Shown piece after piece: positions 30,620-58,913 of a DNA stretch of 64,000 nt. The notes under the pieces are model-generated. The model searched no databases and was not told the DNA's origin. It saw only the letters and a program-made list of their open reading frames with translations. The number at the start of each line of letters is the position of its first letter. Within the stretch, counting starts at the first letter, position 1. Both the position numbers and the translations under genes were made by a program. The stretch is from Tateyamaria sp. (GTDB lineage: Bacteria > Pseudomonadota > Alphaproteobacteria > Rhodobacterales > Rhodobacteraceae): the NCBI RefSeq assembly GCF_039945315.1, contig NZ_JBDUXB010000049.1, forward strand, positions 21,891-85,890. Reading direction: 5' to 3'.

Positions 30620-30622
30620 GCC

Positions 30623-34363: not shown

Positions 34364-34428
34364 AGGGGACCAGCCCCCGCCCCTGCGGGACTCCCCCGGG
34401 ATTTCATAAATCAGAGAAGGGACGCATC

Positions 34429-41507: not shown

Positions 41508-42118
41508 CCCTGCCCTCGCAGCGCCGCGTTTTCAGCCTCGAGTTCTTGGATACGTGCGCTCAGATTGTCCATTTCCGGGCCAACCAGTTGCGCAATTTCT
41601 GCACTGTCAAAGCGCGGCGTGATGAATTGCGGGCAGTTCCAGTCGAAGGCTGCCAGCTTGATGGTGACGAGGCGTTCTACACGTCCCTGCCCTTCGACGG
41701 TAAGGCGTGCGGCGAGGTCGGCACTGTCGGCTGCATTTTGGAACGTGGCGTGACCTTGCAGCTTCAAACGGGCTTTGCGCGGGTAGTCCATCAGGAACAG
41801 CGACACCCGGTCGTCATGGTCCACGTTGCCATGGCTGATATGCTGCTTGTTCCCTTTGTAATCGGCAAAGGCGAGCGTGTGATCGTCAAGCACCTGGAGG
41901 AATCCCACGGGACCGCCCCGGTGCTGGATGTAAGGCCAGCCAGTTTCAGAGACGCTGGCCATGTAGAACGAGGTTCGGCTGGTAATGAACGCGATGTCAT
42001 CCGCGCCCATTGGTCGCGTGCGCGCACCGTAGTTGCGGGCATACATCTCGCGCGTGCCCTCGACGTCTTGAAGCGCTTGCACGGCGAGTGTGAACATCAA
42101 TTCGTCATAGCGTTGCAT
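41504..42118 (-). CDS. pyridoxamine 5'-phosphate oxidase-like FMN-binding protein with coiled C-terminal tail
   Basis: Split-barrel pattern (SFYMASVSETGWPYIQHRGGPVGF...NVDHDDRVSLFLMD). The C-terminus ARIQELEAENAALRGQG looks like a coiled coil. Confidence 0.7.
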   Translation of the reverse strand: MQRYDELMFTLAVQALQDVEGTREMYARNYGARTRPMGADDIAFITSRTSFYMASVSETGWPYIQHRGGPVGFLQVLDDHTLAFADYKGNKQHISHGNVDHDDRVSLFLMDYPRKARLKLQGHATFQNAADSADLAARLTVEGQGRVERLVTIKLAAFDWNCPQFITPRFDSAEIAQLVGPEMDNLSARIQELEAENAALRGQG

Positions 42119-42204: not shown

Positions 42205-43182
42205 TTATCCTGTTTGAAGCAGGATCTGTTTCCAGATCGCCGTTTCATCAAACAGTGCAAATTCACGGCGCAGACCCCATGGGCCGAATTCGGCATGGCT
42301 GATGCCCAGCACGTAAACCTCTGCCCCTGTCGGCGCGCCAAAGTAGCCCCAGCCGTCATGTTTGCCATGCAACGCCCAGCGGATCGCTGCGCGGGGTGGC
42401 ATATGATCATCGTCGCGCCCAATCTGGTGGTCGATGGTAAAGGTTGCATCCGGGAAAGACGCGCGCAGGCCCATCCAGAACCGATCAACCGGGCCATGGC
42501 TGTGCCCGGTGGTGCCGCCGGGATATTCGGACTGCACGGCGCGATCGTATTCAGCCGGGATCACGGCCATGTCCGCGCTCATGATCCGGGTGAGGATATC
42601 GGCGTATTTCTTACCCCATGCGTTGTCATTGCCCCGCCCTTTGTAGGGCCCGGGCTGATCTGTTGCAGGGGTCAGCGGGCGCGCTGCCTTTTCTGGTCCG
42701 CCTTCGCGTGCGATCAGATCAGCGGCGTATTCCTTGGCGTCCCAGCCGATTTGATTGACGATGGCCGTTTGATCCCGGATCAGCCATTCATCGTTGATTT
42801 GATTGTTGATCGCGTGGCAGTCCGCAATGATCCGGTATTGCAGCTTCTTGCCAGACGCAGGCCCATAGACGCCGTCGGCCGTGTGTGTCGCTGTCGACAG
42901 GATGCGGTGGGACGACAACATGCCCTCTTCCGGGGTGCCTGACCAAATGACGTCTTCACCCAGAAGCGTGCGGTCAGGGAATTCCGCAAGCGTGGCCATT
43001 GTCGCCCCGATGACCTTTTCGTTCCCGATCACCACACTTCCGGGCGAACGCACCACAATGTCGTTGCTGTAGTAATGGTGCAGTGTCGCGATGCCGCGGT
43101 CTTCCCATATCTCTTTGGTGATGCCGATGATGTAGTCGGGGAAATCTTTCCACCGGTTTGAAAAACCCTTCATGAGGTCCAT
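42205..43182 (-). CDS. tandem SnoaL/NTF2-like (ester-cyclase-like) domain protein, paralog C
   Basis: 325 aa, two NTF2-like halves, divergent from paralogs A and B. Start at 43182, or at 43173 (ATGA overlap with the LacI stop). Confidence 0.65.
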   Translation of the reverse strand: MDLMKGFSNRWKDFPDYIIGITKEIWEDRGIATLHHYYSNDIVVRSPGSVVIGNEKVIGATMATLAEFPDRTLLGEDVIWSGTPEEGMLSSHRILSTATHTADGVYGPASGKKLQYRIIADCHAINNQINDEWLIRDQTAIVNQIGWDAKEYAADLIAREGGPEKAARPLTPATDQPGPYKGRGNDNAWGKKYADILTRIMSADMAVIPAEYDRAVQSEYPGGTTGHSHGPVDRFWMGLRASFPDATFTIDHQIGRDDDHMPPRAAIRWALHGKHDGWGYFGAPTGAEVYVLGISHAEFGPWGLRREFALFDETAIWKQILLQTG

Positions 43183-44189
43183 CCTTTGGGAATGCGGGCA
43201 GAGCCGCGAATGATCAGGGGGCCGTCAAGTGCAACACGGCGCGGTTTGGTGTCGGGATCGCTCAGGCGATCCATCAGGATACCCACAGTGGCTTGCGCCA
43301 TTTGCCCGGCAGGCTGGCGCACTGTGGTCAGATCATAGCTGGGCCATGCGGCAAGCGTCACGTCGTCGTACCCCACAACGGACACGTCGCCCGGAACCGA
43401 AAGCCCCAGTTCGAAACGCAGGACATCCATGACCGCAAAGGCCATGTGGTCATTGGCGCAGAACACCGCATCAGGAATATCGGTTGCGGAAAATATGTCG
43501 CGCGCGACCGCCTTGGCCTGCTCAAACTGAAAGTCACTCATGGCGCGGGCGAACAGGCTCTGGCCTGCTGCGTTCAACCCCGCAACGAACCCCGCCTCGC
43601 GGTCCCGCTGCGTCGAGGCCCCCTCCCAACCAGCGATATGGGCAATGCGGCTGTGCCCGCCCGCGACAAGGAATTCAGCCAGCTTGCGCCCACCGTGGTA
43701 GTTGTCGGATGTCACAGCAGAGAGGCGATCATCATCCTGCGCGCGGTTGAACAGCACGATCGGGATGCCTGCGGCCTCGCATCGACGCGTCAGATCATTG
43801 GACATTCCGACAGAGGCCGCGATGATCCCATCGACCTGGTAGTCGAGCAGTTCTTCCATCACCTCGTCCGCCTCTTCGCCGGAGTTCGCAGCCATAAAGA
43901 CGAGGACGTGATAGCCCCGCTTTTGTAGCTCGTGGCTGAGCCGTTCGATGGCTTCGGGATAGAATTGGTTTTCGAGATAGGCGACCAGAAGACCGATAAT
44001 ACGCGAGCGCCCGGTGATCAGGGAGCGTGCCAGTACGTTGGGGCGATACCCGAGGGCTTCGGCTGCCGAGCGGACTTTTTTGGCCGTGCGTTCGGACACA
44101 GAGGCACCCGGCGTGAACACACGAGACACAGCCGAGCGCGACACACCCGCCCGTTCCGCCACGTCCAATGCTGTTACCTTTTCGCCCAT
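43170..44189 (-). CDS. LacI-family transcriptional regulator
   Basis: N-terminal HTH VTALDVAERAGVSRSAVSRVF and a periplasmic-binding-fold core. Start set at MGEKVT (TGATG overlap with the SDR stop). Confidence 0.9.
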   Translation of the reverse strand: MGEKVTALDVAERAGVSRSAVSRVFTPGASVSERTAKKVRSAAEALGYRPNVLARSLITGRSRIIGLLVAYLENQFYPEAIERLSHELQKRGYHVLVFMAANSGEEADEVMEELLDYQVDGIIAASVGMSNDLTRRCEAAGIPIVLFNRAQDDDRLSAVTSDNYHGGRKLAEFLVAGGHSRIAHIAGWEGASTQRDREAGFVAGLNAAGQSLFARAMSDFQFEQAKAVARDIFSATDIPDAVFCANDHMAFAVMDVLRFELGLSVPGDVSVVGYDDVTLAAWPSYDLTTVRQPAGQMAQATVGILMDRLSDPDTKPRRVALDGPLIIRGSARIPKGWTS

Positions 44190-44950
44190 CAGTCTGCCGT
44201 CCAACCTCCGTCGATCAGCATTGAAGTGCCTGTCACCATGGCCGAGGCGTCACTTGCCAGAAACTGCACCGCGCCCATGATGTCACTCACCTCGCCCACG
44301 CGGGGCAATTTGATCTTGTCCATGATCCACGTATAGCGGTCCGGGTCGTTGAACGTCGGTTCCGTCAGCGGCGTGCGTATGAAGGTCGGGCAGATCGTAT
44401 TGATGCGGACACCTGATTTACCCCACTCGATTGCCATGGCTTTGACCATCCCTTCGACCGCGTGTTTGGTCGCGCAATAGACCGTGCGGTCGATACCGCC
44501 CACGTGGCCCATCTGGGATGAAATGTGGATGATCGAGCCGGGTTTGTTTGCCTTGATCAGCGCGCGTGCGGCGGACGTCGACAGGAAGTATGCACCTTTG
44601 ACGTTGATGTCGAAAACCGCGTCATAATCCTGCGGTACAGTGTCGAGGGCTGCACTGTGCCGCGCAAGGCCAGCCGAGTTGACGACGACATCACAGGGCG
44701 TCTCAAAGGCGGCGTAGACGGCGGGAATGTCGGTCTGATCCAGCTGCAACGCCTCTGCGCTCAGCCCGGCGGCTTGCATGGCGGCGACCGCATCGTTCAG
44801 CACGTCTGCGCGTCTTGCCGCACACACCACATGCGCGCCGGCCTCGGCCAACGCCACGGCGCAGCCCAGCCCAATGCCCGACGATGCCCCTGTCACCAGA
44901 GCGCGTTTTCCCGTCAAATCGAGCGATGGTGTGCGTGGCAAAGTTCTCAT
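44189..44950 (-). CDS. SDR-family oxidoreductase
   Basis: TGASSGIGLG, NSAG and YCATKHAV motifs. ATGA overlap with the upstream gene. Confidence 0.9.
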   Translation of the reverse strand: MRTLPRTPSLDLTGKRALVTGASSGIGLGCAVALAEAGAHVVCAARRADVLNDAVAAMQAAGLSAEALQLDQTDIPAVYAAFETPCDVVVNSAGLARHSAALDTVPQDYDAVFDINVKGAYFLSTSAARALIKANKPGSIIHISSQMGHVGGIDRTVYCATKHAVEGMVKAMAIEWGKSGVRINTICPTFIRTPLTEPTFNDPDRYTWIMDKIKLPRVGEVSDIMGAVQFLASDASAMVTGTSMLIDGGWTAD

Positions 44951-46002
44951 AGCGCCTGCCCCGTTTCAGGACCAAACCCAGCGCGTGCCTTATTGAACTC
45001 GCGCATGCGCCCCAGCACGTCTACCCCGATCTGGTCATACATATGCAGCAGGTCCACCATCACCCAATTCTCCCGTATCAACCCGTTCTCAAGCCGCCAG
45101 AAATCCAGGCTGCGCATCGCAACCTTTTTATCTGTCGGGGGCAGGCCCAACCATCCATCGTGCGTTATGGTCTGATACATGTTCGGCCAGCCCGTGACCG
45201 CCGCATAGGCGCGGTCCCCGAAGAAGTGATAGACGATGTCATCCACAAAGGCACCACGATCCGGCATCCCATTCAGAAACGGGATCTGGTGCCAGTTGCG
45301 AAAACCCGCGATACCCCGTCCCGAGCCGATGCCAGAGGGGCCGTACCACATCACGCGCGGGTGCCAGAACCGTTCCATCTCCATCACTTCAGGGCCGCCC
45401 TGGCTGGGGTGGCGTTTCATGTGCTCCAGCATGTCGATGATATGCTGGCAGGTGGCCGCGCCCTCTTTGTCGTCATAGGGTCCCGGCACCAGCCCATCGC
45501 AGGTGGCAGGCCCCGGCACGTGCCATTCGCGCCCAAGGCTCCGCACCATTGGCCACGCGCCCGCCTGCATCATCACCTCGGGAATATCCCAGAGCGCCTG
45601 CATCTCGACCACGCGACCGTCAACAAAGCGGTAAAACTCGTGGAACCGCATGTGCACGATGTGCCCCGTGGCCGGGATATCCAGCCAAGGGTGCTGGAAG
45701 GTGCCGGTGTAGTAGCCGCCACATCCAACCCAGTCGTGCCCATCCGGGGTGGGGCCGGCCATAACGATGAAATCGCGCCGTTCCAGATCAGGGATCGCAG
45801 CCAGCAGTGGGTCGTAAGCCTTGTCAAAATAGGCGTCCACCCCCGCAGTCGTTTCGAACGGAAAAGCCAAATTGAATTGGACATCGGTGTCACAAACAGC
45901 ATGCAGGGCGGCGCGCACTGCGTTCGCGTTAAAATCATACATGGCAGCCCGCAAAGGGGCCAAAAGAGTCTTGTGCAGCGTATGTGTATCGCTCATGGCC
46001 AA
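44947..46002 (-). CDS. tandem SnoaL/NTF2-like domain protein, paralog B
   Basis: Shares blocks with paralog A: AAIPDLERR, GGYYTG, IPATG, FWHPRVMWYGPSGIG, LDFWR and ENWVMVDLLHMYDQIGVDV. An alternative start at 45996 gives an ATGA overlap. Confidence 0.7.
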   Translation of the reverse strand: MAMSDTHTLHKTLLAPLRAAMYDFNANAVRAALHAVCDTDVQFNLAFPFETTAGVDAYFDKAYDPLLAAIPDLERRDFIVMAGPTPDGHDWVGCGGYYTGTFQHPWLDIPATGHIVHMRFHEFYRFVDGRVVEMQALWDIPEVMMQAGAWPMVRSLGREWHVPGPATCDGLVPGPYDDKEGAATCQHIIDMLEHMKRHPSQGGPEVMEMERFWHPRVMWYGPSGIGSGRGIAGFRNWHQIPFLNGMPDRGAFVDDIVYHFFGDRAYAAVTGWPNMYQTITHDGWLGLPPTDKKVAMRSLDFWRLENGLIRENWVMVDLLHMYDQIGVDVLGRMREFNKARAGFGPETGQAL

Positions 46003-47003
46003 TGCCCCTTGGCCCGCGCAAATAGATCGACACCCATCTGAGCAAAGAGATGGATCATATCTACAAACACCCAGTTTTCGGTGAATTGCCCGCCAGTGCG
46101 CAGCCAGAAATCAAGGCCCGAGACCTCCAGATGCGCAGCACTGGCAGGCTGGCCCAGATAAGGACCGGTATGTGTCGCGACAACGCCCTTGGGTCCAGAG
46201 GCGGCGACCATACGGCCTTCGGCAAATAGGCTTTCCAGATGCATCACCTTGCGGTCAGGAAAGGCCGTCAGCCACGGGCGTTGGTGCAAGGTTTCGAACT
46301 CGTGCAATGACAGGCAGGCTCCGATCCCGCCGGGGCCATACCATTTGATTTTGGGATGGAAAAAGCGGGCCATACCCATGCTTGAGAGATCACTTTCGTC
46401 AAAGGTGTTGAGACCCCCAAAGATCAACGCCTGACCCAACCCCATGCTTTGCTCGGTCTCTTTGACGTTTTGGGCATCAGCCAGTACTCCATCATAGCCC
46501 GTCGGGGCCGGGTAGACATGCGAGGCCCCGTTCGGGCGCGGCAGGATGGGCAGTCCAATCTGTTCGAACCAATCGACAAAATCCCAAATGGTCTGGGCAT
46601 GTGTCACTTGCCCGTCTGCATCAAAGCGCAAAAATTCACCCCAGCGAATGCGCAGATCGCGCGTCGTTGCCGGAATGCCAAAGACGTCCGCGATGGCGCG
46701 GCCAGTGTAGTAGCCCGTGCCAGCGACCCACCACGCACCATCCCCCTGCCCGCTTTCATTGGCCGAAGACTGACCGCCCATCAGGATATGGGTCTGGCGC
46801 TGCAAATCCGGGATCGCGGCCCGCAGGGGGGTAAACATCGCAGCAACGATGCCCGCACCGCTGCTGTGGATGCCAATGGGTTCGGGTCCCTGCCACTGCT
46901 TGACCTTGTCCAGCAACGCCAACGCTCTGTTCGGGTCGCGGTCAAGTTCCGCCCAAAGTGTCAGTGCCTTCGCCTTGTTGCGTTGATTGATGTCGGTCCC
47001 CAT
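45993..47003 (-). CDS. tandem SnoaL/NTF2-like domain protein, paralog A
   Basis: AAIPDLQRQ, GYYTG, IPATT, FFHPKIKWYGPGGIG, LDFWL and ENWVFVDMIHLFAQMGVDL. Start at MGTDIN (ATG 47003). The track ORF carries a spurious 61-codon N-terminal extension. Confidence 0.7.
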   Translation of the reverse strand: MGTDINQRNKAKALTLWAELDRDPNRALALLDKVKQWQGPEPIGIHSSGAGIVAAMFTPLRAAIPDLQRQTHILMGGQSSANESGQGDGAWWVAGTGYYTGRAIADVFGIPATTRDLRIRWGEFLRFDADGQVTHAQTIWDFVDWFEQIGLPILPRPNGASHVYPAPTGYDGVLADAQNVKETEQSMGLGQALIFGGLNTFDESDLSSMGMARFFHPKIKWYGPGGIGACLSLHEFETLHQRPWLTAFPDRKVMHLESLFAEGRMVAASGPKGVVATHTGPYLGQPASAAHLEVSGLDFWLRTGGQFTENWVFVDMIHLFAQMGVDLFARAKGHWP

Positions 47004-47068
47004 AGGGTCTTCTTCTCTGATTTCAAAAATCCTGGGGGAGTCCGCAGGACGGAGGCTAGCCCCCCTTT

Positions 47069-48397
47069 TTACTCTGCGGCATCCCGTGCTGGGGCACCGG
47101 TGCCGTAAGGCACGTTCACACCGCCGTAGCGGCGCACACGCAGGTTGCACTGCTCCGCATGGCCCACGAACCCTTCGAGCATGCACAGGCGCGAACCATA
47201 GGCGCCGATTTCAGCAGCCGCCGCGTCTGTTGTGACCTTTTGATAGGAATGCGTCTTGAGGAACTTGCCGACCCACAGACCGCCCGTGTACCGCCCCGCC
47301 TTTTTGGTTGGCAGCGTGTGGTTGGTTCCAATCACCTTGTCCCCATTGGCCACGTTGGTGCGTGGACCAAGGAAGAGCGCGCCGTAGCAGGTCATATGCT
47401 CGAGGAACCAGGCGTCGCGATCAGTCATCACTTGCACATGTTCCGACGCGATGTCGTCTGCGACTTCCAGCATCTCGTCATAGGTATCGCACAAGATCAC
47501 TTCGCCGTAGTCCTCCCACGACTTGGACGCAGTGTCGGCCGTTGGCAGGATGGTCAGAATGCGGTCTATCTCGACCAGCGTCGCCTCGGCCAGCTTGCGG
47601 CTGTTGGTGAGCAAAACAGCCGGAGAGTTGTACCCATGCTCGGCCTGCCCCAAGAGATCGGTGGCACACATTTCAGCGTCCACCGTGTCGTCCGCGATCA
47701 CCATCGTCTCGGTCGGCCCGGCGAACAAATCAATGCCCACCTTGCCGAACAATTGCCGTTTGGCCTCTGCCACAAAGGCATTGCCGGGCCCGACGAGCAT
47801 ATGCACAGGTTCAATCGTTTCGGTGCCCAAAGCCATCGCGCCGATCGCCTGAATGCCACCCATCACGTAGATCTCGTGCGCGCCGCCCAAGTGCATGGCC
47901 GCGATCACGCCCGGGTTGGGTTTGCCCTGAAAGGGGGGCGTGCAGGCGATGATCCGCGGGACACCAGCGACAGAAGCTGTCGCGACCGACATGTGGGCCG
48001 AAGCCACCATCGGGAACTTGCCACCGGGCACGTAGCAGCCAACGGACTGCACCGGGATATTCTTGTGCCCGAGGATCACACCCGGCATCGTCTCAACCTC
48101 GATGTCCAGCATCGAGTCCCGCTGGGCTTGGGCAAAGTTGCGTACCTGCTCCTGTGCAAAACGGATGTCCTCCAACTCGCGCGGGGTCAGTTGCGCGATC
48201 AACGTATCGATCTCTTCGGCCGACAGTTTGAACGCAGGTGGCGAGTAATTGTCGAACTTTTCCGACAATTCGCGCACGGCCACGTCCCCGCGTGCCGCGA
48301 TATCCGCCAGAGTCGCCTCAACGATCGCACGCGTTTTGGCATCGTCTGCGTCCCGCTCCGTTTCCGGCTTCCCGGTTTTCAAATACTCAATTGTCAT
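47069..48397 (-). CDS. histidinol dehydrogenase-family (HisD-like) NAD-dependent dehydrogenase, catabolic paralog
   Basis: 442 aa with HisD-type layout throughout. Embedded in a transporter/regulator cluster, not in a his operon. Confidence 0.8.
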
Positions 48398-48401
48398 TTC
48401 G

Positions 48402-48938
48402 TCACCTCATCCCTGAGGGGTGGGGCGCGACCCTGTCGCCATTATCGAACGCCTCCCATCCCTCACCTTTGAAAACATCGACCCCAAGCTGGGCCAGCAC
48501 ATGCGGGAAATCGACCATGACGTAGTTGTCGGTGATCCGCCCGTCTTCGACTTTCCAGAAATCCATGTAGCGGATGTCGATCCGCTTGCCCGTGGGGGCG
48601 ACCCCCATGAAGTCACCCGAATGCGTTGCCTCTTGCCGTCCAAAGGCTGCGGCCCATTCGCCCATATAAATGCGCGCCTCGTCCACACAGACCTTGTCGC
48701 TGAAGGCGGCCTGAAACGGGCGCTGCCAGTTGTCCTGAAACTCTTGCAACCCGGTCTTGGTCCCGCAGCCCTGATTGCCCATCCAGCGAAAGCTTTCGGC
48801 AAAGAACTGGCCAATATCATCAATGCGGTGATCGTTGAGGCCGTCCACCATTCCTTCGATCACAGCGCGGGTTTCGTCTGTTTTGCTGAGATCGGTGTCG
48901 CGTGTCAGCACGGCTTGTTCGGGGCGAGACCCTTTCAT
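48402..48938 (-). CDS. single-domain SnoaL-like (ester cyclase/NTF2) protein
   Basis: 178 aa. [10 protein letters not shown]...[31 protein letters not shown] matches the second domains of paralogs A and B. Confidence 0.7.
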
Positions 48939-49017
48939 GCAACGTCATCCTTGATTTTTGAGAACAGGACCGGGGCGCTGCCCCGGACCCCGTGGTATTT
49001 TGGGTCAGAAGAAACCA

Positions 49018-50169
49018 TCAGCCTTTGACGGCCCCCGCCGTAAGCCCGCTCACGATCTGGCGCTGGAACACCATCACCAGCAAGAACAAAGGCGCTGTGA
49101 TCGACACCGCCGCCGCCACCGCCTCGACCTGATCTGTTGTTGTGGTTTCACGGTTGAAGTAGCCCGCGATGGCCGGAACCATCGTCTGGTTCTGCGCATC
49201 CAGAAGCAGCGAGGTCACAAGGAAGTCGTTGTAGCCCAAGAGGAATGAGAACAGGCCCGTTGTGATTACCCCCGGCCACATGACCGGCATGATAACGCGG
49301 CGGAAGGCCTGGAAGTGGCTGCACCCATCCACCCGGGCGGCCTCATCTAGTTCGGAAGGAATGTTCTGGAAGAAGCTGCGCAGCATCCAGATCGTGAACG
49401 GTTGGTTGATGGACACAAGCACCGCGATCACCGCCCACGGTTGCCCGTAGAGCGTCGGCGAGAGGTCCCCAAAGATGGGCCGCAGGATTTCAGCGGAATT
49501 GATGAACCACGGCAGGTACCCCGCCACCAGAACCGAATGCGGCAGTGCGCGGAAAACAAGAGCGAGGATCAAAAGCCAAAAGGCAAGGTTCGAACCCGAA
49601 CGCGCCAACCCGTAGCCTGCCAGCGTACCCACGGTCAAAGAGATGAGAACCACACCAGCCGTCACAATCATCGAGTTCATAAAGTTGCGGTAGAACTGGT
49701 TTTCGCCCCAGACAGCCTGATAGTGTTCGGTCGTAAGCCCAATGATCGGCTCGCCAATGGGTCCTAGGATCGAATTGATCACCCCGAATACCGGCGGCAA
49801 TATCCCAAAAAAGATCAGCACGAATGCGAGGCCAAAGACGGCCGCGCCGACCAGCCATCCCACAACGATCAGCCCCGGACGAGAGAACCGCTCAACCAGT
49901 TTTGGCAGGCCCGTAAAGGCCCAGCGGATCGCAAAGAACAGAAATGCCAGCCCCAGCACGATGTCGATGATCGACAGCCCGTTGCCCGCGGCCCGGGTCG
50001 CAGGCCCGGTTATGACGTCCCAAGCGCTCGCCGCAAAGGCGTCGCGCGGGGATTTGACGCTCATCACCGCGATCCACACGATTGGGAAGGCCGCCAGCAA
50101 GCACCAGAAGGCGAGGAATGCGCCCGATGCAACTTTGAGCGAAAGCGGTTGTGCGGTTGCCTTCGACAT
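49018..50169 (-). CDS. carbohydrate-type (CUT1) ABC transporter permease with extra-TM insertion
   Basis: MalG-like core (EAARVDGCS EAA loop). 383 aa, about 100 aa longer than usual. Confidence 0.85.
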   Translation of the reverse strand: MSKATAQPLSLKVASGAFLAFWCLLAAFPIVWIAVMSVKSPRDAFAASAWDVITGPATRAAGNGLSIIDIVLGLAFLFFAIRWAFTGLPKLVERFSRPGLIVVGWLVGAAVFGLAFVLIFFGILPPVFGVINSILGPIGEPIIGLTTEHYQAVWGENQFYRNFMNSMIVTAGVVLISLTVGTLAGYGLARSGSNLAFWLLILALVFRALPHSVLVAGYLPWFINSAEILRPIFGDLSPTLYGQPWAVIAVLVSINQPFTIWMLRSFFQNIPSELDEAARVDGCSHFQAFRRVIMPVMWPGVITTGLFSFLLGYNDFLVTSLLLDAQNQTMVPAIAGYFNRETTTTDQVEAVAAAVSITAPLFLLVMVFQRQIVSGLTAGAVKG

Positions 50170-51197
50170 CAGTGTGCCCCCCCTTTGTGGTCACGCCATG
50201 TGCGGCGCAACGGCAGGATCAACAGAACAACGATCCCAATCATGGTCAGCATGGCCGAGGCCGACGCCCGGCTAATCGCACGGTTGCCCGCATCATCCGG
50301 CACCATGAAATCGTAGGTGAGCCACTGCAGCGAAATCACGTGCGCCTGAGAGCGGAAGCCGACGATTTCTTCGAACGTCCGGTAGCAGTCCATAAGGTGG
50401 ATCAGCGCAATAAAGATGATCAGCGGCATCAGGTGCGGCACGATCACATAGCGAAGACGTTCGAACCGGCTGGCTCCGTCGATGATCGCGGATTCCAGCG
50501 TGTCCATATTCACGGTTTGCAGGCCCGCATAGAAGATCACGAAAGCAAAGGGCGCCACGTGCCAGACGCGGTAAAAGTACATCAGGAGTTCAATTGTCCA
50601 AGCCTGAGCGAACATCGCAATGTCCTGCCCGGTCCAGCGTTCCAGCGTTGCCGTAAGGATGCCGTCGCCCACGAAAAGCCAGTAGATCGACAGTGACCCA
50701 ATCACCGGCGTGATGATAAAGGGCAGAAGGGAGACGAAGATTATGGGGCCCTTGAATGCCTTGGCTGCATTGTTGACCGCCAGCGCAATCATCAGCCCTA
50801 CACCGATGACCAAAGGCAGTGTCAGCAGCGTGAACATCAGGGTGAAACGCAGCGCCTTCCAGAAGTCGATCTGCAGAATGTCACCGACAGCTCCGCTGCT
50901 AATCGCCTCCCAAACCTTGTCCATTTGCAGCACGTTGGCATAGCTCTGAAAACCAACCCACGAGGTTGTCGTGATCGTCTTGCCTGTCTCTTCGTCGATC
51001 GTTGGCACTGTTTTCATTTCAGTGGTGCAGGTCTGGGTCAGGAACCCGGGCGTGCAGGTTTCCACCTCGATCTGTTGCATGACCGGTTGGGTCACCTGAA
51101 AGGACTGGATGAACACCGAAACCAGTGGCGCTGCGATAAAGAGCAGCATCATGAATACCGACGGCGCGACGAACCAGAAGAAAGTCTTAAACTTCAT
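50169..51197 (-). CDS. carbohydrate-type (CUT1) ABC transporter permease (MalF-like)
   Basis: Start at MKFKTFFWFVAP (AAAGGA upstream), EAA-like loop ESAIIDGASRF. TGATG overlap with the next permease. Confidence 0.85.
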   Translation of the reverse strand: MKFKTFFWFVAPSVFMMLLFIAAPLVSVFIQSFQVTQPVMQQIEVETCTPGFLTQTCTTEMKTVPTIDEETGKTITTTSWVGFQSYANVLQMDKVWEAISSGAVGDILQIDFWKALRFTLMFTLLTLPLVIGVGLMIALAVNNAAKAFKGPIIFVSLLPFIITPVIGSLSIYWLFVGDGILTATLERWTGQDIAMFAQAWTIELLMYFYRVWHVAPFAFVIFYAGLQTVNMDTLESAIIDGASRFERLRYVIVPHLMPLIIFIALIHLMDCYRTFEEIVGFRSQAHVISLQWLTYDFMVPDDAGNRAISRASASAMLTMIGIVVLLILPLRRTWRDHKGGAH

Positions 51198-51427
51198 GTT
51201 GCAGTCCTTTCGTGGGTGGCAGCGGCCATTGGGCCCCCGATCTGCCAGCCGTTCATCATGGATGCGCCATTGGTGTTGGCGCCAAAGGTTGCTCTTGGTC
51301 GACGCGGATGCCGCAATCGGGCCGGCGGCATTCCCGCCAGTGCGCCCGGTTGTTCGGCAAGACGCGCAGCAACCGCGCATCCAGCAGAGCCACCGCCCAC
51401 AACGATATGATCGAATTCAGTTTGCAT
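51194..51427 (-). pseudogene. relic of a GMC-family FAD oxidoreductase (N-terminal 77 codons only)
   Basis: MQTEFDHIVVGGGSAGCAVAARLAE is the GMC-type Rossmann FAD motif. Recognisable similarity then ends, and the stop overlaps the permease ATG. Confidence 0.6.
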
Positions 51428-51445
51428 GACATCCCAGTGTTTGGA

Positions 51446-51476
51446 TTGGCTGGCCGGGAACGCCCCGGCCAGCCAA
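51446..51476 (-). other. perfect 13-bp GC-rich intercistronic stem-loop after the binding-protein gene
   Basis: TTGGCTGGCCGGG-AACGC-CCCGGCCAGCCAA, starting 10 nt after the SBP stop codon. No U-tract. Confidence 0.7.
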
Positions 51477-51485
51477 GTAAGTGGC

Positions 51486-52706
51486 TTACTTCAGCACACC
51501 GGCCTCTTTGGCCGCGGTAGCGTAGGATTCCTCAATCGCGACGAGCGTGGCTGCTGCGTCACGTTCCCCTGTCAGGAATGCAGGCAGTTCGTTCCCAAGC
51601 GCCGTGTGCATCAGACCCATTTGAGTGGTCGACGGGTAAGGCGGAGCCGCGGGAGACGCGGTGGCCGTTGCAATCGCACCTGCGGCCAGAGGACCGGGCT
51701 CATAGCCTTTGACCAGCCAGATCGCGGCTCCGTTGTTGGCCTTGACCATTTCCTCGTCCAGACCTTCCATCGCCAGACGGAAAGCAGCGTCAGCTTCCTC
51801 ATCGGTGATGTTCGCCGCGATCACAATGCCGTCCCACCACAGTGTGGTGGCAGGTGCGCCGCCCTCCATGGCAAGCGGTGCGGCAGCCATTTTGACTTTG
51901 CCTACAACTGTACTTTCGGCTTCGTCATCCATGGCGGCGCCACGGCTCGCCCAGAGGTTCGACATGGCAATTTTGCCCTGTTGGAACTGCTGTTGCACGT
52001 AAGTTGAGTCGCTAACCAGCACCTCTGGATCGGCGTATGGAAGCGTTTTCGCCAATGTTTCCAGGGCCTTCACACCCGCCTCGGAGTTCACCGCGGCAGA
52101 GTTGTCTGCGTTGAAGAACGCACCACCAAAGGCCGGGTACATGTTCACGAATTCCTGCGCGAGGTTCCAGCCCGATTTCATCGTGGCACCGATGGCGTGG
52201 TCCACAACACCGGCCTCTTTGATAGTTTCGGCGGCGGCAAACACTTCGTCCCATGTGGTGGGCACTTCAAGACCGAGATCGTTGAAGATGTCTTCGCGGT
52301 ACATCAGGTGCTGGGTGTTGACCATCATGGCAATCGCCATAGTCTTGCCGTCAACTTTGATCAGCTGGTTGGGCGACAGGTTCTGACCGTATTTTGCGAC
52401 CAGATCGTCCAGCGGGCGGATCGTGCCAGCGTTCAGCAACGGTGTGACGGTGCCGTTGGATACGCCACCGATGTGATAAAGTGATGGGTTCGCTTCGAAG
52501 GCGGCAGGCTGCTTGGTGCGGAATTCCTGATCAAGCTCGGCCTGAAAATTCCCGCACTCGGCCATGGCGTCTGTGACGGCTTTCCACGCTTCAAATCCAG
52601 CGCTCAGCGATTTCAGCGGCACCGTGTTTTCGTAAGAGCACGCCGCGAACGCGGATGTGCCCATAAGCGAGACAGCGCCCGCCAGTGCCAGTTTCTTAAG
52701 ATACAT
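51486..52706 (-). CDS. ABC transporter substrate-binding protein (family 1, sugar-type)
   Basis: Start at MYLKKLALAGAVSLMGTSAFA (signal peptide, AGGGAG upstream). About 406 aa with an SBP fold. Confidence 0.85.
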   Translation of the reverse strand: MYLKKLALAGAVSLMGTSAFAACSYENTVPLKSLSAGFEAWKAVTDAMAECGNFQAELDQEFRTKQPAAFEANPSLYHIGGVSNGTVTPLLNAGTIRPLDDLVAKYGQNLSPNQLIKVDGKTMAIAMMVNTQHLMYREDIFNDLGLEVPTTWDEVFAAAETIKEAGVVDHAIGATMKSGWNLAQEFVNMYPAFGGAFFNADNSAAVNSEAGVKALETLAKTLPYADPEVLVSDSTYVQQQFQQGKIAMSNLWASRGAAMDDEAESTVVGKVKMAAAPLAMEGGAPATTLWWDGIVIAANITDEEADAAFRLAMEGLDEEMVKANNGAAIWLVKGYEPGPLAAGAIATATASPAAPPYPSTTQMGLMHTALGNELPAFLTGERDAAATLVAIEESYATAAKEAGVLK

Positions 52707-52808
52707 GTGCAAACTCCCTGTTGCGTTTTTTGTCAGTGCACCTTGCAAGCCTGCACCAACTTGGATTGCCCGATGCCCGGGTGCCCCCGGGGACAACGGG
52801 GTGTCATG

Positions 52809-53855
52809 TCAGCCGAGGCGTTCGCCTGACGTACTGTCAAATGCGTGACAGATCGTGTTCGGGATCGAGAAGGAGATCATGTCGCCTATCTCTGCCCGGA
52901 ATTCTTTGTGCGCCTTGACCGAAACCAATTGTCCGCCCGCACGGACCGTCAGCATGGTCGCATCACCCAGAAGTTCGATTGTGTAGATCGGGGCGTTGAT
53001 CTGGCCGTCGGCTTCAGCCAATGCAGCGTCTTCGGCACGGAACCCCAAGGTGACAGGCCCGTCGGGCACGCCAAGGCCGCCGATCTTGACCTTGTCGCCG
53101 GTAAATGTACCGCCCGCCATTGTGCCGTCCATCAGGTTCATCGCAGGTGAGCCGATAAAGCTTGCTACGAAAGTGTTGGCCGGGTTGTCGTAGATTTCAG
53201 TTGGGGTGCCCACTTGTTGGACCTTGCCCTGTTTCATCACCACGACGCGGTCAGCCAATGTCATTGCTTCGATTTGGTCGTGGGTCACGTAGACGGTTGT
53301 GACCTTCAACTCGTGGCTTAGGTTCTTGATCTGGGCGCGGGTGGAAACCCGCAGTTTGGCGTCCAGATTGGAGAGTGGTTCATCCATCAGGAACACGTTC
53401 GGCTCGCGCACAATCGCTCGGGCAAGAGCGACGCGCTGACGCTGACCACCAGAAAGTTCAGCGGGCTTGCGGTGCAGAAATTCATCGAGCTCAACCATTG
53501 CGGAGGCGCGGCGTACCCGCTCGTCATGCGTTGCGGGGTCTGCTTTTCGCACCTTCAACGGAAAGCGGATGTTTTCATAGACATTGAGGTGCGGGTAGAG
53601 CCCGTAGGATTGAAACACCATCGCCACGTCGCGGTCTTTTGGGTCCAGATCGTTGACCCGCTTGCCGTCGATCACGATGTCACCGTCTGTTGCGTCCTCT
53701 AGCCCCGCAATCATCCGCATCGTCGTGGTTTTTCCACAGCCTGAAGGACCCAGCAGTACGAGGAATTCCTGGTCCGCAATCGTGAGGTCGAAGTTGTCGA
53801 CCCCGACAAACGTACCCCAGCGCTTGTTGATGTTGCGTAGCTGAATTTCGGCCAT
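52809..53855 (-). CDS. ABC transporter ATP-binding protein (MalK/UgpC type)
   Basis: GPSGCGKTT, LSGGQRQRVALARA and FLMDEP, plus a C-terminal regulatory/TOBE domain. Start at MAEIQL (GAGGGA upstream). Confidence 0.92.
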   Translation of the reverse strand: MAEIQLRNINKRWGTFVGVDNFDLTIADQEFLVLLGPSGCGKTTTMRMIAGLEDATDGDIVIDGKRVNDLDPKDRDVAMVFQSYGLYPHLNVYENIRFPLKVRKADPATHDERVRRASAMVELDEFLHRKPAELSGGQRQRVALARAIVREPNVFLMDEPLSNLDAKLRVSTRAQIKNLSHELKVTTVYVTHDQIEAMTLADRVVVMKQGKVQQVGTPTEIYDNPANTFVASFIGSPAMNLMDGTMAGGTFTGDKVKIGGLGVPDGPVTLGFRAEDAALAEADGQINAPIYTIELLGDATMLTVRAGGQLVSVKAHKEFRAEIGDMISFSIPNTICHAFDSTSGERLG

Positions 53856-53919
53856 AATGATCCCTCGCGACAGCTTGATATCAAACGCTAGCCACCGCAC
53901 GTACGTCTTGGCAACAGTT

Positions 53920-53939
53920 TTTTGCACACGTGTGCAAAA
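53920..53939. promoter_or_regulatory. perfect 20-bp palindrome, candidate LacI-family operator
   Basis: TTTTGCACAC|GTGTGCAAAA, 65-84 nt upstream of the first gene (the ATPase) of the array that contains the LacI-family gene. Confidence 0.6.
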
Positions 53940-54013: not shown

Positions 54014-56170
54014 TCAGGCTGTATTCGTCGCCTGCAAACCGGCAACTGCCGCGCGAATCCCCTCAACGGAAGGCAGCGTGTCGCCATAAGCACGCCCCGT
54101 AGGAATAAAGCTGTCTTCGGCGGTGTAGCGCGCAATGTTTCGATGACCGGCCTCGAAAAGCGCGGTCATGACGCCTTCCGAGACTCCGCCAGAACGGCGC
54201 GTTTCATCGACGACAAGGATATGTTTACTGCCCTGCACAGCGTCCAGAAGACTGTCGATGGGCAGCGGTGCCAGCCAACGGAGATCAATCAGCCGCGCAC
54301 CAGGAATATCTACCTTTTCGGCGAGGTATCGGCCATTTGCAAAGGTCACAATGGCCAGATCGCCTTGGCCCTGCACACCGACCTCACCAACCTCAATACG
54401 TTGATCCAGATCGGGATAAGTGCGCATCCACGCGCCATCTCCGGACTGCACATCCCGCATCGGGTAAAGCGCAATGGGTTCCACAAAGACGCACAGACGG
54501 TTTTCTTCGCGCGCAAGGCGGTGGCACTCGCGCAGCATTTGGACGGCCTCTGCCCCGTCCGATGGACAGGCAAGGATCAGCCCCGGAATGTCGCGCAGCA
54601 CAGCAAGCGCATTGTCGTTGTGGAAATGACCGCCGAACCCTTTTTGATAACCAAGACCGGCGATACGCAGCACCATCGGATTGGCCCATTGCCCGTTGGA
54701 AAAGAACGGCAGGGTCGCCGCTTCGCCGCGTATCTGGTCCTCGGCGTTGTGCAGGTACGCAAGAAACTGGATTTCAGGCATCGGGACAAACCCGTTATGG
54801 GCCATCCCGATCGCAAGCCCGAGAATGGACTGTTCGTCCAAGAGTGTGTCGATCACACGGGACGTTCCAAACCGCGCAGACAGCTTTTGCGTGACGCCAT
54901 AGACCCCTCCCTTGCGCCCAACATCTTCGCCCATGATCACCGTTTCAGGATGGGCGAGCATTAAGTCGGTCAGCGCCCAATTGATCAGTTTCGACATTGG
55001 TTGTGGGCGGTCCATCTGGGCAAAGTCCGTCCCAAAGGCAGCAGTACGGGCCGAGGCGTCCGGACCATTTGTCAAAGAAGCGGCCCGCGCAGGAGGCACG
55101 ATGGCGGACATCACCGCCTCTGCCCCTTTTAGGGGTGGGGAATCGGCAATCTGCGAGGCCTCATCTCGGGTGCGGGCAAGGGCGCCCGTGTAAATAGCAA
55201 GGACAGCATCGGGCTCCATCCCTTGAGCGACCAGCCCAGCCGCTGTGTGCAACAGTGGATCGTTAGCCTCATCCGCCTCGACTTCTGCGCGCGGCAAATA
55301 GCTTGTCGCCACATCGGCACCGGCATGTCCATACAAGCGCACGGTGCGCAGATGCAGGACGGCGGGTTTTCGTGTACGACGCACATAGTCTGCGGCCTCG
55401 GATGCAGCCGCATAGGCATCCCACATATTGCAACCATCACCGCTGAAATACGTCAGCCCCGGACGGTGCGCGAGGCTGCTCTCGACCCAGCCTGTCGGGG
55501 TCTTGGTCGAAATCCCAATTCCGTTGTCTTCGCAGATGAACAACAAGGGCAAGGGAGCGCCCTGTACACTGGTCCAGCCTGCCGCGTTGATCGCGCCTTG
55601 CGCCGTTGAGTGGTTGAGCGAGGCATCCCCAAAACTCGCGACGGCGATCGTATCGTCTGGAAGGATCGCCAGTTCGGGACGATTACGGCGGGCTAACGCG
55701 ATGCCATAGGCCGCACCAACGGCCTTGGGCAGGTGACTGGCAATTGTCGAGGTCTGCGGCGGAATGAAAAGATCGCGGCTTCCCAGCACCTTGTGACGCC
55801 CGCCGCTGGTGGGATCACTTGCGGCGCAGGCATAGCTGAGCAGCATATCGCGACAGGCGTCCTGCCCGGCCTTGGCTGCTCGGGCCACCTGAAACGCGCC
55901 ATCCCGGTAATGCAGAAACGCGATGTCATCCACGCGCAGCGCATGGGCAACCGCCGCCATGCCCTCGTGCCCGGACGAGCCGATGGTGTAAAACCCCTGA
56001 CCCGCTTTCTGCATTTCACGGCTCACAATATCCAGCGCACGGGTCAGGCATTGGTGTTCGAACAGACGATGCGCGGTCTCGGCGTCCAGCCCGTGCGGCG
56101 TGACCTCGGGCAGGTCACGCGCTGCCACCTGTCTCAGGAAGTTATCGTGAACGATCGAAACGCGGTCCAT
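54014..56170 (-). CDS. TPP-dependent 2-oxoacid dehydrogenase E1 component, fused alpha-beta subunits
   Basis: 718 aa. The N-terminal half is E1-alpha (GDASLNHSTAQGAIN, ICEDNGIGIST). The C-terminal half is E1-beta/transketolase-like. Confidence 0.8.
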   Translation of the reverse strand: MDRVSIVHDNFLRQVAARDLPEVTPHGLDAETAHRLFEHQCLTRALDIVSREMQKAGQGFYTIGSSGHEGMAAVAHALRVDDIAFLHYRDGAFQVARAAKAGQDACRDMLLSYACAASDPTSGGRHKVLGSRDLFIPPQTSTIASHLPKAVGAAYGIALARRNRPELAILPDDTIAVASFGDASLNHSTAQGAINAAGWTSVQGAPLPLLFICEDNGIGISTKTPTGWVESSLAHRPGLTYFSGDGCNMWDAYAAASEAADYVRRTRKPAVLHLRTVRLYGHAGADVATSYLPRAEVEADEANDPLLHTAAGLVAQGMEPDAVLAIYTGALARTRDEASQIADSPPLKGAEAVMSAIVPPARAASLTNGPDASARTAAFGTDFAQMDRPQPMSKLINWALTDLMLAHPETVIMGEDVGRKGGVYGVTQKLSARFGTSRVIDTLLDEQSILGLAIGMAHNGFVPMPEIQFLAYLHNAEDQIRGEAATLPFFSNGQWANPMVLRIAGLGYQKGFGGHFHNDNALAVLRDIPGLILACPSDGAEAVQMLRECHRLAREENRLCVFVEPIALYPMRDVQSGDGAWMRTYPDLDQRIEVGEVGVQGQGDLAIVTFANGRYLAEKVDIPGARLIDLRWLAPLPIDSLLDAVQGSKHILVVDETRRSGGVSEGVMTALFEAGHRNIARYTAEDSFIPTGRAYGDTLPSVEGIRAAVAGLQATNTA

Positions 56171-56218
56171 GCGGCCTCTGTCAGGATGTTTGATTTCGTT
56201 CCTCTGGCGGGTTTTTCA

Positions 56219-56254
56219 GAACAGAAAAGAACAAAACCCCAACCTTTTCTGTTC
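56219..56254. promoter_or_regulatory. perfect 11-bp inverted repeat upstream of the fused E1 gene
   Basis: GAACAGAAAAG-N14-CTTTTCTGTTC, 49-84 nt upstream of the E1 start (56170) and 41 nt downstream of the gcdH stop. Confidence 0.45.
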
Positions 56255-56294
56255 CCAATCACTCCTCCGGGGACAGACCGCCCCCGGCAATGGG

Positions 56295-58837: not shown

Positions 58838-58913
58838 AGGCACAAGAATGGAACGACGCGGCCGCACAGGCAACCCGCTTGCAGGCCAATGATCAGCCGG
58901 GCAAGGTGGCGCA

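Follow-up and report, generated by a model that had tools for sequence, protein, structure and literature searches.

On a 64,000-nucleotide stretch of a Tateyamaria sp. contig (NZ_JBDUXB010000049.1, positions 21,891 to 85,890; hereafter the window, all coordinates being counted from its first letter), the minus strand carries a dense array of genes for an ABC importer, a LacI-family regulator, several NTF2/SnoaL-fold proteins and a dehydrogenase of the histidinol dehydrogenase (HisD) family. The best explanation for this array is a LacI-repressed operon, which imports and degrades a small polar metabolite, and together with a bicupin gene and a gene for a MetE-like enzyme further downstream it very probably constitutes a single co-regulated catabolic unit. 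Our best inference regarding the substrate is a cyclic enol (methyl) ether bearing a hydroxymethyl group, which would be imported and then oxidatively ring-cleaved. The substrate may belong to the mycosporine-like amino acids (MAAs) and gadusols, with the 4-deoxygadusol core of the MAAs as leading candidate, to which we assign a probability of roughly 0.25 to 0.3. A previous interpretation of the locus from its letters (the sequence-only reading) had described an undescribed LacI-linked importer and enzyme cassette, and this description stands, as searches of the literature, of PDB, and of NCBIfam and Pfam names turned up no experimentally assigned pathway for it. Its novelty lies in the combination, which is undescribed but built from known superfamilies. 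The outcomes that would have refuted the description did not occur: the closest characterised homologue (HpsN, 47% identity) differs in a specificity residue, the neighbourhood is conserved, and the NTF2 calls hold. Our literature search yielded no paper on this gene combination, nor on catabolic genes for MAAs or for the head groups of betaine lipids; results for 'ester cyclase' mostly concerned the chlorophyll cyclase.

A conserved cassette and its operator

The gene map is based on the list of open reading frames (ORFs) and on Pfam/NCBIfam profile scans of the window proteins. Counts of loci refer to the best 80 of at least 593 matches, which were obtained by scanning one genome per GTDB species with protein B; the gene content of these 80 species loci was determined by tblastn with every window protein. 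The features, listed from the operator downstream, are as follows:

53921-53938, no strand: predicted LacI-type operator TTTGCACACGTGTGCAAA, a perfect 18-bp palindrome 66 nt upstream of the ATPase start codon
52809-53855, minus: MalK-type ABC ATPase (Pfam ABC_tran, OB_MalK, TOBE_2; 74/80 loci, 76-99% identity)
51486-52706, minus: CUT1-type periplasmic solute-binding protein (SBP) with signal peptide (Pfam SBP_bac_1)
50169-51197, minus: ABC permease 1, Perm1 (Pfam BPD_transp_1; 76/80 loci)
49018-50169, minus: ABC permease 2, Perm2 (Pfam BPD_transp_1; 76/80 loci)
48402-48938, minus: Sno1, single-domain SnoaL-fold protein, core (Pfam SnoaL, 69 bits; 80/80 loci)
47069-48397, minus: HpsN-like member of the histidinol dehydrogenase family, core (Pfam Histidinol_dh, 444 bits)
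45993-47003, minus: double-domain NTF2 protein A, lineage-specific accessory paralog (Pfam SnoaL, twice)
44947-46002, minus: double-domain NTF2 protein B, core in marine versions (Pfam SnoaL, twice; 80/80 loci, 71-96% identity)
44189-44950, minus: classical short-chain dehydrogenase/reductase (SDR) oxidoreductase, core (Pfam adh_short_C2, 176 bits; 78/80 loci)
43170-44204, minus: LacI-family repressor, inside the operon (Pfam LacI and Peripla_BP_1/3/4; 77/80 loci)
42205-43182, minus: double-domain NTF2 protein C, core (Pfam SnoaL and SnoaL_2; 77/80 loci)
41504-42118, minus: PNPOx-like FMN-binding protein, accessory (Pfam PNPOx_N; 36/80 loci)
40977-41507, minus: DUF6653 membrane protein, accessory, in Tateyamaria-type loci only (Pfam DUF6653; 22/80 loci)
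40007-40972, minus: bicupin, 321 aa, core (Pfam Cupin_2, twice; 74/80 loci, 67-98% identity)
39018-40019, minus: 333-aa secreted protein, accessory (no Pfam match; 16/80 loci)
38395-39021, minus: SAM-dependent methyltransferase-fold protein, accessory (Pfam Methyltransf_25; 32/80 loci)
37269-38393, minus: MetE-like single-barrel zinc enzyme, 374 aa, near-core (Pfam Meth_synt_2; 71/80 loci, 79-99% identity)

The eleven genes from the ATPase to protein C all lie on the minus strand and in the order that had been listed for them, and each family call is backed by the profile scans. An SBP_bac_1 protein, two BPD_transp_1 permeases and a MalK-like ATPase with C-terminal OB/TOBE region make up the importer, which is the composition defining a CUT1 system; a PDB sequence search revealed only distant relatives of the SBP (best 5iai, 65 bits), and in some of the 80 loci it is swapped for a second SBP/permease type with 40-46% identity. 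The core order (ATPase, SBP, Perm1, Perm2, Sno1, HpsN-like dehydrogenase, B, SDR, LacI, C) is identical in 74-80 of the 80 species loci, at 62-99% identity, and extends over two alphaproteobacterial orders, being found in Tateyamaria, Roseobacter, Sulfitobacter, Ruegeria and Defluviimonas as well as in Roseibium and Hoeflea, which belong to the Hyphomicrobiales and hence to another order than the host. Identities to the Roseibium proteins still amount to 86% for the HpsN-like dehydrogenase, 82% for Sno1, 80% for C and 77% for B. The co-occurrence of these genes as a conserved cassette in related genomes, which the sequence-only reading had proposed to check, is thereby borne out, and chance adjacency is excluded by the synteny across orders together with the common operator. 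In one species locus (L060) the gene order is rearranged with all members retained, and further copies of the cassette reside on plasmids of Octadecabacter, Ensifer and Mesorhizobium. A gene for a GMC oxidoreductase was noticed between the permease and Sno1 genes of Roseibium album, and also in Mesorhizobium and many Tateyamaria loci.

The extent of 42205-53939 originally given for the cassette proved too small. Clustering the unexplained ORFs of the 80 loci brought further travelling genes to the surface, and of these the bicupin gene (40007-40972) and the MetE-like gene (37269-38393) belong to the cassette. Their membership is based on synteny and translational coupling, as a motif scan of the window and the 80 loci showed no second LacI operator in front of either of them. 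The MetE-like gene is kept in Roseibium, Hoeflea and Ruegeria, with 79-83% identity even across orders. On plasmid pOA238_160 of Octadecabacter arcticus, the genes for the HisD-like protein, NTF2 protein, SDR, LacI, NTF2 protein, cupin, MetE-like protein and an alpha/beta-hydrolase overlap by 1-4 nt, which indicates one operon in which the bicupin gene is translationally coupled to its neighbours, and an RraA gene follows downstream of the hydrolase gene after a short gap. According to Pfam, the RraA-like gene is present in 58/80 loci, outside the Tateyamaria-type ones, and the alpha/beta-hydrolase gene in 22/80; the latter and the PNPOx-like flavoprotein gene are mutually exclusive among the 80 species loci. 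Protein A had been counted as a member of the cassette and turned out to be a lineage-specific extra: proteins similar enough to count as its true orthologues (at least 60% identity) are limited to Tateyamaria and some Roseobacter/Sulfitobacter loci, and many other genomes carry a paralog D instead, divergent from the ATPase gene.

The gene junctions had been summarised as overlaps of 1-13 nt or gaps of 4 nt. This picture of tight packing is correct for the enzyme genes, where A and B overlap by 10 nt, B and SDR by 4 nt, SDR and LacI by 16 nt and LacI and C by 13 nt, and where a 4-nt gap separates Sno1 from the HpsN-like gene; Perm1 and Perm2 likewise share 1 nt. With the most plausible start codons, however, wider gaps are found between ATPase and SBP (~100 nt), SBP and Perm1 (~290 nt), Perm2 and Sno1 (79 nt) and between the HpsN-like gene and A (65 nt). 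Since the transporter genes are 79-290 nt apart, translational coupling fits a part of the array only.

The LacI protein combines an N-terminal LacI helix-turn-helix with an effector domain resembling periplasmic binding proteins (Pfam). The palindrome suspected at 53920-53939 was confirmed at 53921-53938; TTTGCACACGTGTGCAAA has a central CG and occurs a single time in the window, in the promoter of its own operon. Nearly all loci have it conserved as TTGCAyACGTrTGCAA, 37-128 nt (mostly 73-106 nt) upstream of the start codon of the ATPase gene. The relaxed motif TGCAnnCGnnTGCA yielded 95 sites in the 1.56 Mb of the 80 loci, 93 of which are located in cassette promoter regions: 81 upstream of the ATPase gene, including 23 in the intergenic region common to the divergent paralog D, and 12 upstream of the HpsN-like gene in Roseibium and Hoeflea. 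The remaining 2 sites compare with ~1.5 expected by chance. Judged by this distribution of motif sites, the palindrome is a genuine, cassette-specific LacI-type operator.

Diverged cassettes, recovered from PLSDB and from a metagenome scan seeded with a Vibrio homologue, were found in Vibrio, soil rhizobia, a haloarchaeon and metagenomes. The gene set persists in metagenome contigs in which the HpsN-like protein has dropped to 62-70% and the cupin to 34-45% identity. Low-GC contigs of the gamma type carry a TonB-dependent receptor and an SSS symporter in place of the ABC importer and an HpcH/HpaI aldolase in place of the RraA-like protein (Pfam). Phaeobacter piscinae and Vibrio possess minimal modules, which consist only of transporter, LacI and NTF2 genes and thus suggest that the first step on the imported compound falls to the NTF2 proteins. 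On a plasmid of Halobellus, the MetE-like gene is linked to four double NTF2 genes and a small SnoaL gene, and genes for an ABC system, AldA, an oxidoreductase and a GcvT-like protein are found with them; the Vibrio pelagius module lies beside soxBDAG-purU. Serine ammonia-lyase, an alanine/glycine symporter and sox, each a neighbour in single Vibrio or Phaeobacter cases, did not recur in the 160 loci from genomes and metagenomes and are not counted as evidence. The Vibrio pelagius plasmid (26539-28569 of locus L081) also harbours, ~12 kb away from the NTF2/ABC module, a pair of genes for a 'methionine synthase' and a DUF1852 protein; this 'methionine synthase' is 23% identical to the MetE-like protein of the cassette, and the pair probably represents a different MetE-like system.

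The enzymes of the cassette

The assignment of the dehydrogenase to the HisD family can be retained at the level of the superfamily, as the protein has the PF00815 fold (Histidinol_dh, 444 bits) with the zinc ligands and the Glu-His pair; within the family, however, it stands closest to HpsN and forms a third subfamily of its own. The best PDB match is CpHpsN (8v35; 388 bits, 46.6% identity), HisD structures reaching 217-250 bits. The zinc ligands Q251, H254, D353 and H413 and the catalytic pair E319-H320 are conserved, diverged homologues included, and D353-K354, corresponding to Asp352-Lys353 of HpsN, is invariant. HpsN is marked by the signature G-R-Y-A/S-H, the last His of which (His126) binds zinc or the sulfonate, and the HisD equivalent is G-S-A-P-L (PMC11382572). 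The window protein reads GKFPM at this site, and G-K-F/Y-P-M/L is found in all 94 homologues (82 close and 12 diverged), so that the position of His126 is taken by Met130 here and by Met or Leu in 94/94. Hence, GSAPL and a closest similarity to true HisD are both lacking, as is the HpsN signature with His126, and of the HpsN features the Lys beside the Asp is retained. By these residues, the enzyme would represent a third subfamily acting on another substrate, presumably as a Zn/NAD four-electron dehydrogenase of the alcohol-to-acid type, and its substrate is still expected to be a primary alcohol with a vicinal hydroxy (or amino) group. The protein is 100% identical to one from a Tateyamaria metagenome-assembled genome and 99% identical to that of Tateyamaria sp. 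Alg231-49, in agreement with an origin of the window from Tateyamaria (Rhodobacterales, Roseobacteraceae). The 3.8-Mb chromosome of Tateyamaria sp. SN6-1 encodes two HpsN-like proteins (P0119 and P0120), each ~90% identical to the window protein, and this strain may carry two copies of the cassette.

Seven SnoaL/NTF2-like domains had been counted at this locus, a number that withstood both profile searches and structure prediction: Pfam places one domain in Sno1 and two each in A, B and C. Also as previously stated, A and B are clear paralogs (32% identity, with the listed motifs common to both) and C is more divergent (23% identity to B). In the AlphaFold model of B (pLDDT 79) two NTF2 cones are seen, and Foldseek matched it to the two-domain polyether epoxide hydrolases MonBI/BII and Lsd19 and to the single-domain IdmH, AclR and SnoaL2, with per-domain TM scores of 0.7-0.8 for the latter three, so that the cone fold accompanies the PF07366 profile. 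The alpha+beta cone is thus shared with the SnoaL/AknH cyclases and the Lsd19/MonB epoxide hydrolases, Lsd19 also having the two-domain architecture and belonging to the best two-domain matches; unlike these enzymes, the cassette proteins lack Asp121, His107 and His119, have no polyketide synthase (PKS) context and possess conserved motifs of their own (DFW, ENW-x-VD, WYGPxGIG). Alignment of Sno1 with SnoaL (1SJW) pairs D121 with V140, H107 with D126 and H119 with N138, and canonical SnoaL chemistry was ruled out on account of these missing catalytic Asp/His residues. C also occurs in the soil rhizobial versions (71% identity in Ensifer, 56% in Mesorhizobium), and the double-NTF2 family as a whole comprises 182 clusters (50% identity) at E <= 1e-30. 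Some relatives (P0374, P0383, P0388) measure 540-710 aa with two or three matched stretches and are fusions with more than two NTF2 domains. For the NTF2 proteins, as well as for the bicupin, SBP, RraA-like and MetE-like proteins, searches against PDB sequences returned only remote or uncharacterised relatives.

In the N-terminal cupin of the bicupin, motif 1 (HxHxxxE) is intact (H76-x-H78-x3-E82), and in motif 2 the usual His is replaced by Arg120; H76, H78, E82 and R120 are invariant down to 34-45% identity. The C-terminal cupin is degenerate; its HQH...H sequence was considered as a 3-His site and rejected, conservation being confined to the N-terminal site. Foldseek places the model (pLDDT 72) next to 1y3t, 1juh and 2phd (E ~1e-13, TM ~0.5), with quercetin 2,3-dioxygenase, oxalate decarboxylase and salicylate/gentisate dioxygenase as the closest enzymes, so that, as far as the model can tell, it has the bicupin fold of ring-cleaving dioxygenases. 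The resemblance to quercetin degradation, where a bicupin quercetin 2,3-dioxygenase is combined with a depside esterase, lies in this fold, which gives the best Foldseek matches. With quercetinase, Dke1 and ARD, acting on beta-diketones and aci-reductones, the cassette would have in common the logic proposed below, namely O2 cleavage at an O-substituted enol carbon leading to an ester in need of an esterase; the cassette bicupin differs from them in sequence (12-17% identity), in its site of His, His, Glu and Arg versus 3-His(-Glu), and in its degenerate second cupin. A bicupin 92% identical to the window protein (P0245) is present as a transcript in the MMETSP transcriptome of marine eukaryotes, which suggests expression of the gene in bacteria that accompany cultured algae.

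The MetE-like protein is automatically named 'cobalamin-independent methionine synthase II family'. Its H242, C244, E276 and C342, as well as the GSxPR and DGE motifs, which bind homocysteine in MetE structures, are invariant, and hence the zinc site of MetE (His-x-Cys, Glu, Cys) is present in a Meth_synt_2 barrel. These features are shared with the MetE/BHMT-type zinc-thiol methyltransferases. In contrast to those, the enzyme is a single barrel of 374 aa without the N-terminal folate-binding barrel, stays below every methionine-synthase equivalog cut-off (best NCBIfam score 79 bits versus a cut-off of 406) and is encoded in a catabolic operon.

The alpha/beta-hydrolase of related loci is nearest to 3-oxoadipate enol-lactonase, the methyl esterase BioH and carboxylesterases, and the core SDR scores below every NCBIfam equivalog cut-off. 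The earlier statement that the locus has no aldolase is true of the window, but most relatives add an alpha/beta-hydrolase and an aldolase of either the RraA-like or the HpcH type. Among loci with both HpsN-like and cupin genes, 75 have only the RraA-like gene, 7 only HpcH/HpaI, none both and 25 neither, a pattern of non-orthologous displacement between two families of class II pyruvate aldolases. We consider this displacement the strongest evidence that the pathway ends in the aldol cleavage of a 4-hydroxy-2-oxoacid. The RraA-like protein, which is encoded in related loci only, matches the Pfam RraA-like family (PF03737) with 63 bits and has the invariant 'RD'. At 35661-37261 (minus strand) the window has genes for a fusion of a class III nucleotidyl cyclase with an FHA domain and for a CIA30-like protein, whereas this position is taken by the RraA-like gene in Roseobacter sp. 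S98 (L053) and in many Tateyamaria loci; the lineage of the window appears to have lost or relocated the terminal aldolase.

Candidate substrate and alternatives

The sequence-only reading had thought of an unusual polyol, glycoside or lactone as substrate. This suggestion, for which little speaks besides the type of transporter, the type of regulator and weak similarities of the SDR, gives way to that of ring cleavage of a methylated enolic compound, to which the cupin, esterase, aldolase and methyl-transfer genes point instead. A lower pathway of cleavage, hydrolysis and pyruvate aldolase reaction is in our opinion probable, and the gene order cupin, (MetE-like), hydrolase, aldolase equals the order of the reactions proposed. 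For an MAA as the substrate, the NTF2 proteins would be the first to act on the imported compound, their paralogs hydrolysing the imine- or enaminone-linked amino acids to give 4-deoxygadusol, and MAA substituents are varied, which agrees with an NTF2 paralog number that differs between loci. Oxidation to COOH of the CH2OH adjacent to a carbinol (C7 of 4-deoxygadusol) would be the task of the HpsN-like enzyme, and Arg120 of the cupin would be a plausible partner of the resulting C7 carboxylate. The bicupin, with its 2-His-1-Glu metal site and invariant Arg, may then open the enolic ring with O2 between C2 and C3 in a Dke1- or quercetinase-like manner, whereby the methoxy-bearing carbon would be turned into a methyl ester, that is the 1-methyl ester of 4-carboxy-4-hydroxy-2-oxoadipate (CHA). 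Removal of the methyl ester by the alpha/beta-hydrolase, acting as an esterase, would release CHA, and the aldolase, which would split a 4-hydroxy-2-oxoacid into pyruvate and a second keto acid, would convert it to pyruvate and oxaloacetate. The MetE-like enzyme might salvage the methyl group of the enol ether onto homocysteine. Gadusol, which is 4-deoxygadusol with one more OH, could be degraded according to the same scheme. The 4-deoxygadusol scaffold would account for each proposed step, the SDR aside, and the predicted cleavage product would be a substrate of RraA-family aldolases, since cleavage of CHA is a known reaction of characterised members.

A comparable lower segment is found in the protocatechuate 4,5-cleavage and gallate pathways (hydrolase or hydratase LigI/LigJ, then CHA aldolase LigK/GalC), where a hydrolase (alpha/beta or Amidohydro_2) is likewise followed by a class II aldolase of the RraA fold and where pyruvate and oxaloacetate, the end products predicted here, are formed; unlike these pathways, the cassette has no LigAB-type extradiol dioxygenase, LigC or LigU and is equipped with a transporter and regulator of the carbohydrate type. 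Bacteria have been reported to convert shinorine and porphyra-334 to mycosporine-glycine and 4-deoxygadusol, the enzymes not being known (PMC3083659). Conceivably, though we would not put it higher than that, the cassette would be the first catabolic pathway for MAAs or gadusols with a genetic definition and would include three new activities, namely hydrolysis by NTF2 proteins, C7 oxidation and methionine synthesis dependent on an enol methyl ether.

Several points weigh against this reading. The window itself contains neither the alpha/beta-hydrolase nor the aldolase of the cassette, the MAA scheme leaves the core SDR without a role, and the sets on soil plasmids of Ensifer and Mesorhizobium come without the MetE-like gene. 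The bicupin model is only moderately confident (pLDDT 72, TM ~0.5), the fourth metal-binding His is an Arg, and isomerases and decarboxylases are known among the cupins as well. With 29 bits, the RraA-like protein stays far below the LigK equivalog cut-off of 304. CUT1 transporters and LacI regulators usually serve carbohydrates. The soxBDAG-purU genes in Vibrio and the GcvT-like gene in Halobellus would fit an N-methylated substrate at least as well, and catabolic genes for Gly, Ser or Thr do not recur near the cassette in the 160 loci. Finally, the substrate is a prediction from gene content.

The transporter and regulator just mentioned would be at home in a pathway that oxidises an unusual sugar or glycoside, perhaps an O-methylated or 6-substituted one, by a non-phosphorylative route; this comes close to the sequence-only reading, and we regard it as possible, although rather doubtful. 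The SDR would then serve as sugar 1-dehydrogenase, in keeping with its sub-threshold matches to KduD and to glucose, gluconate-5 and L-rhamnose-1 dehydrogenases, the alpha/beta-hydrolase or Amidohydro_2 protein (the latter in 8 loci) as lactonase, an NTF2 protein or the cupin as the missing dehydratase or isomerase, and RraA/HpcH as 2-keto-3-deoxy-acid aldolase; the HpcH family does include KD-rhamnonate and KD-glucarate aldolases. The HpsN-like enzyme would oxidise an alpha-hydroxy-aldehyde or diol product, and an alpha-hydroxy aldehyde is indeed accepted by HpsN (PMC11382572). In 39/80 loci there is an MR/MLE enolase-superfamily gene in the vicinity, but it has the opposite orientation and is missing in Ruegeria, Roseibium and the gamma-type loci, and the conserved core contains no kinase, glycoside hydrolase or known sugar-acid dehydratase. 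No RraA-type aldolase is known to use keto-deoxy sugar acids, the similarity of the hydrolase is to enol-lactonases and methyl esterases instead of sugar lactonases, a zinc-thiolate MetE-like enzyme is implausible for the demethylation of an alkyl methyl ether, and four to five NTF2 paralogs are left unexplained. With the non-phosphorylative L-rhamnose/L-fucose pathway (LRA1-4), the cassette shares an SDR, a lactonase-type hydrolase, an HpcH-type aldolase and a sugar-type importer and regulator, whereas its core lacks an enolase-superfamily or IlvD dehydratase, its usual aldolase is of the RraA type, and its NTF2, cupin, MetE-like and HpsN-like proteins have no counterpart there. The linked MetE-like genes and the neighbours in Vibrio pelagius (soxBDAG-purU) and Halobellus (GcvT-like) would be accommodated by an N-methylated osmolyte or lipid head group that bears glycerol or an amino alcohol, such as the glyceryl-homoserine betaine or glyceryl-carboxyhydroxymethylcholine of betaine lipids in algae. 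Here, the glycerol CH2OH would be the target of the HpsN-like enzyme, oxidation and beta-elimination by the SDR and NTF2 proteins would break the ether, and the MetE-like enzyme would be a betaine:homocysteine methyltransferase. HpsN acts on a 3-substituted propane-1,2-diol and its Lys353 is retained in the cassette enzyme, glycerol derivatives are imported by CUT1 systems, and deacylated betaine-lipid head groups exist in nature (PMC10362313). The bicupin, the esterase, the pyruvate aldolase and the multiplicity of paralogs, however, would be without explanation, the Sox and GcvT neighbours are single instances without recurrence in 160 other loci, and transporters of the betaine type (BCCT, ProU) are absent, which makes such a substrate unlikely.

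Since HpsN gives the best match among solved structures (388 bits, 46.6%), some JGI records name the homologues 'sulfopropanediol 3-dehydrogenase', and the host clade is a known degrader of 2,3-dihydroxypropanesulfonate (DHPS) (PMC11131964), a variant pathway for DHPS or another organosulfonate had to be considered as well. The DHPS catabolism of Cupriavidus and Roseobacteraceae (hpsNOP with suyAB/xsc/cuyA) indeed has in common with the cassette the HisD-fold dehydrogenase with its conserved zinc ligands, Glu-His and Asp-Lys pairs, an adjacent SDR and the host clade. The cassette departs from it in the GKFPM sequence replacing the His126 motif (G-K-F/Y-P-M/L in 94/94 homologues), in the five to seven NTF2 domains, bicupin, MetE-like enzyme, esterase and aldolase it adds, and in its missing partners: an hpsO/hpsP pair and the sulfolyases SuyAB, Xsc and CuyA were found neither in the window nor in 168 related loci, which have a single SDR only, and a sulfite exporter, the HpsKLM TRAP transporter or an MFS transporter for DHPS are equally lacking from the loci examined. 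In a survey of HpsN homologues, only 272/1000 had hpsO/hpsP as neighbours, and the 728/1000 without them were set aside (PMC11382572). With the HpsN motif replaced and the partner genes missing, the DHPS reading was rejected as very improbable. Even less can be said for a biosynthetic or tailoring cluster for a polyketide-like product, or for chance adjacency. The former is brought to mind by the Pfam/NCBI names 'SnoaL-like polyketide cyclase' and 'ester cyclase' and by structural neighbours that are polyketide cyclases and polyether epoxide hydrolases, but there is no gene for a PKS, a nonribosomal peptide synthetase or an exporter, an importer with binding protein and a LacI regulator lead the operon, and the catalytic Asp/His residues of SnoaL are absent. 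Both are effectively refuted by the synteny and operator results, the shared operator and the synteny excluding chance.

Roseobacter-group bacteria handle a large share of the carbon released by phytoplankton, and many of their substrate-specific operons are without assigned function. With at least 593 matches among species representatives, thousands of proteins from metagenomes at 75-90% identity, copies on plasmids and chromids, and versions in Vibrio, rhizobia and a haloarchaeon, the present cassette is among the better conserved of these unassigned operons. Knowing its substrate would add a new currency to models of the exchange between phytoplankton and bacteria and would assign functions to three widespread families misnamed by automatic annotation ('ester cyclase', 'histidinol dehydrogenase / sulfopropanediol dehydrogenase' and 'methionine synthase II'); databases in which HpsN homologues are counted as DHPS degraders could then be corrected. 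MAAs and gadusol are the main UV sunscreens of algae, corals and zooplankton. If the mycosporine/gadusol reading is true, the cassette would explain the turnover of UV-screening compounds and supply enzymes for biotransformation, and in the case of MAAs, ring cleavage would feed the whole carbon skeleton via CHA into pyruvate and oxaloacetate.

Neighbouring genes

On the other strand, 6 kb from the cassette (29831-31945, plus), the window contains a gene for an alpha/beta-hydrolase (262 aa) followed by one for a Lyase_1 protein (440 aa), which look like a PcaD/PcaB pair of the beta-ketoadipate pathway. Genes for an MFS transporter, a Zn-dependent alcohol dehydrogenase and an MR/MLE enolase-superfamily protein follow at 31942-35664 (plus); the last of these adjoins the cassette in 39/80 species loci, and the region may either belong to the pathway as an accessory or form a sugar-acid module of its own. 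Immediately before the operator, on its upstream side, 54014-57500 (minus) encodes a fused E1 alpha/beta thiamine-diphosphate enzyme (718 aa) and an acyl-CoA dehydrogenase, both of which are probably unrelated to the cassette, the E1 gene being syntenic in 19/80 loci and the acyl-CoA dehydrogenase gene in 23/80. A gene of the SRAP (SOS-response-associated peptidase) family is located at 58160-58840 (minus).

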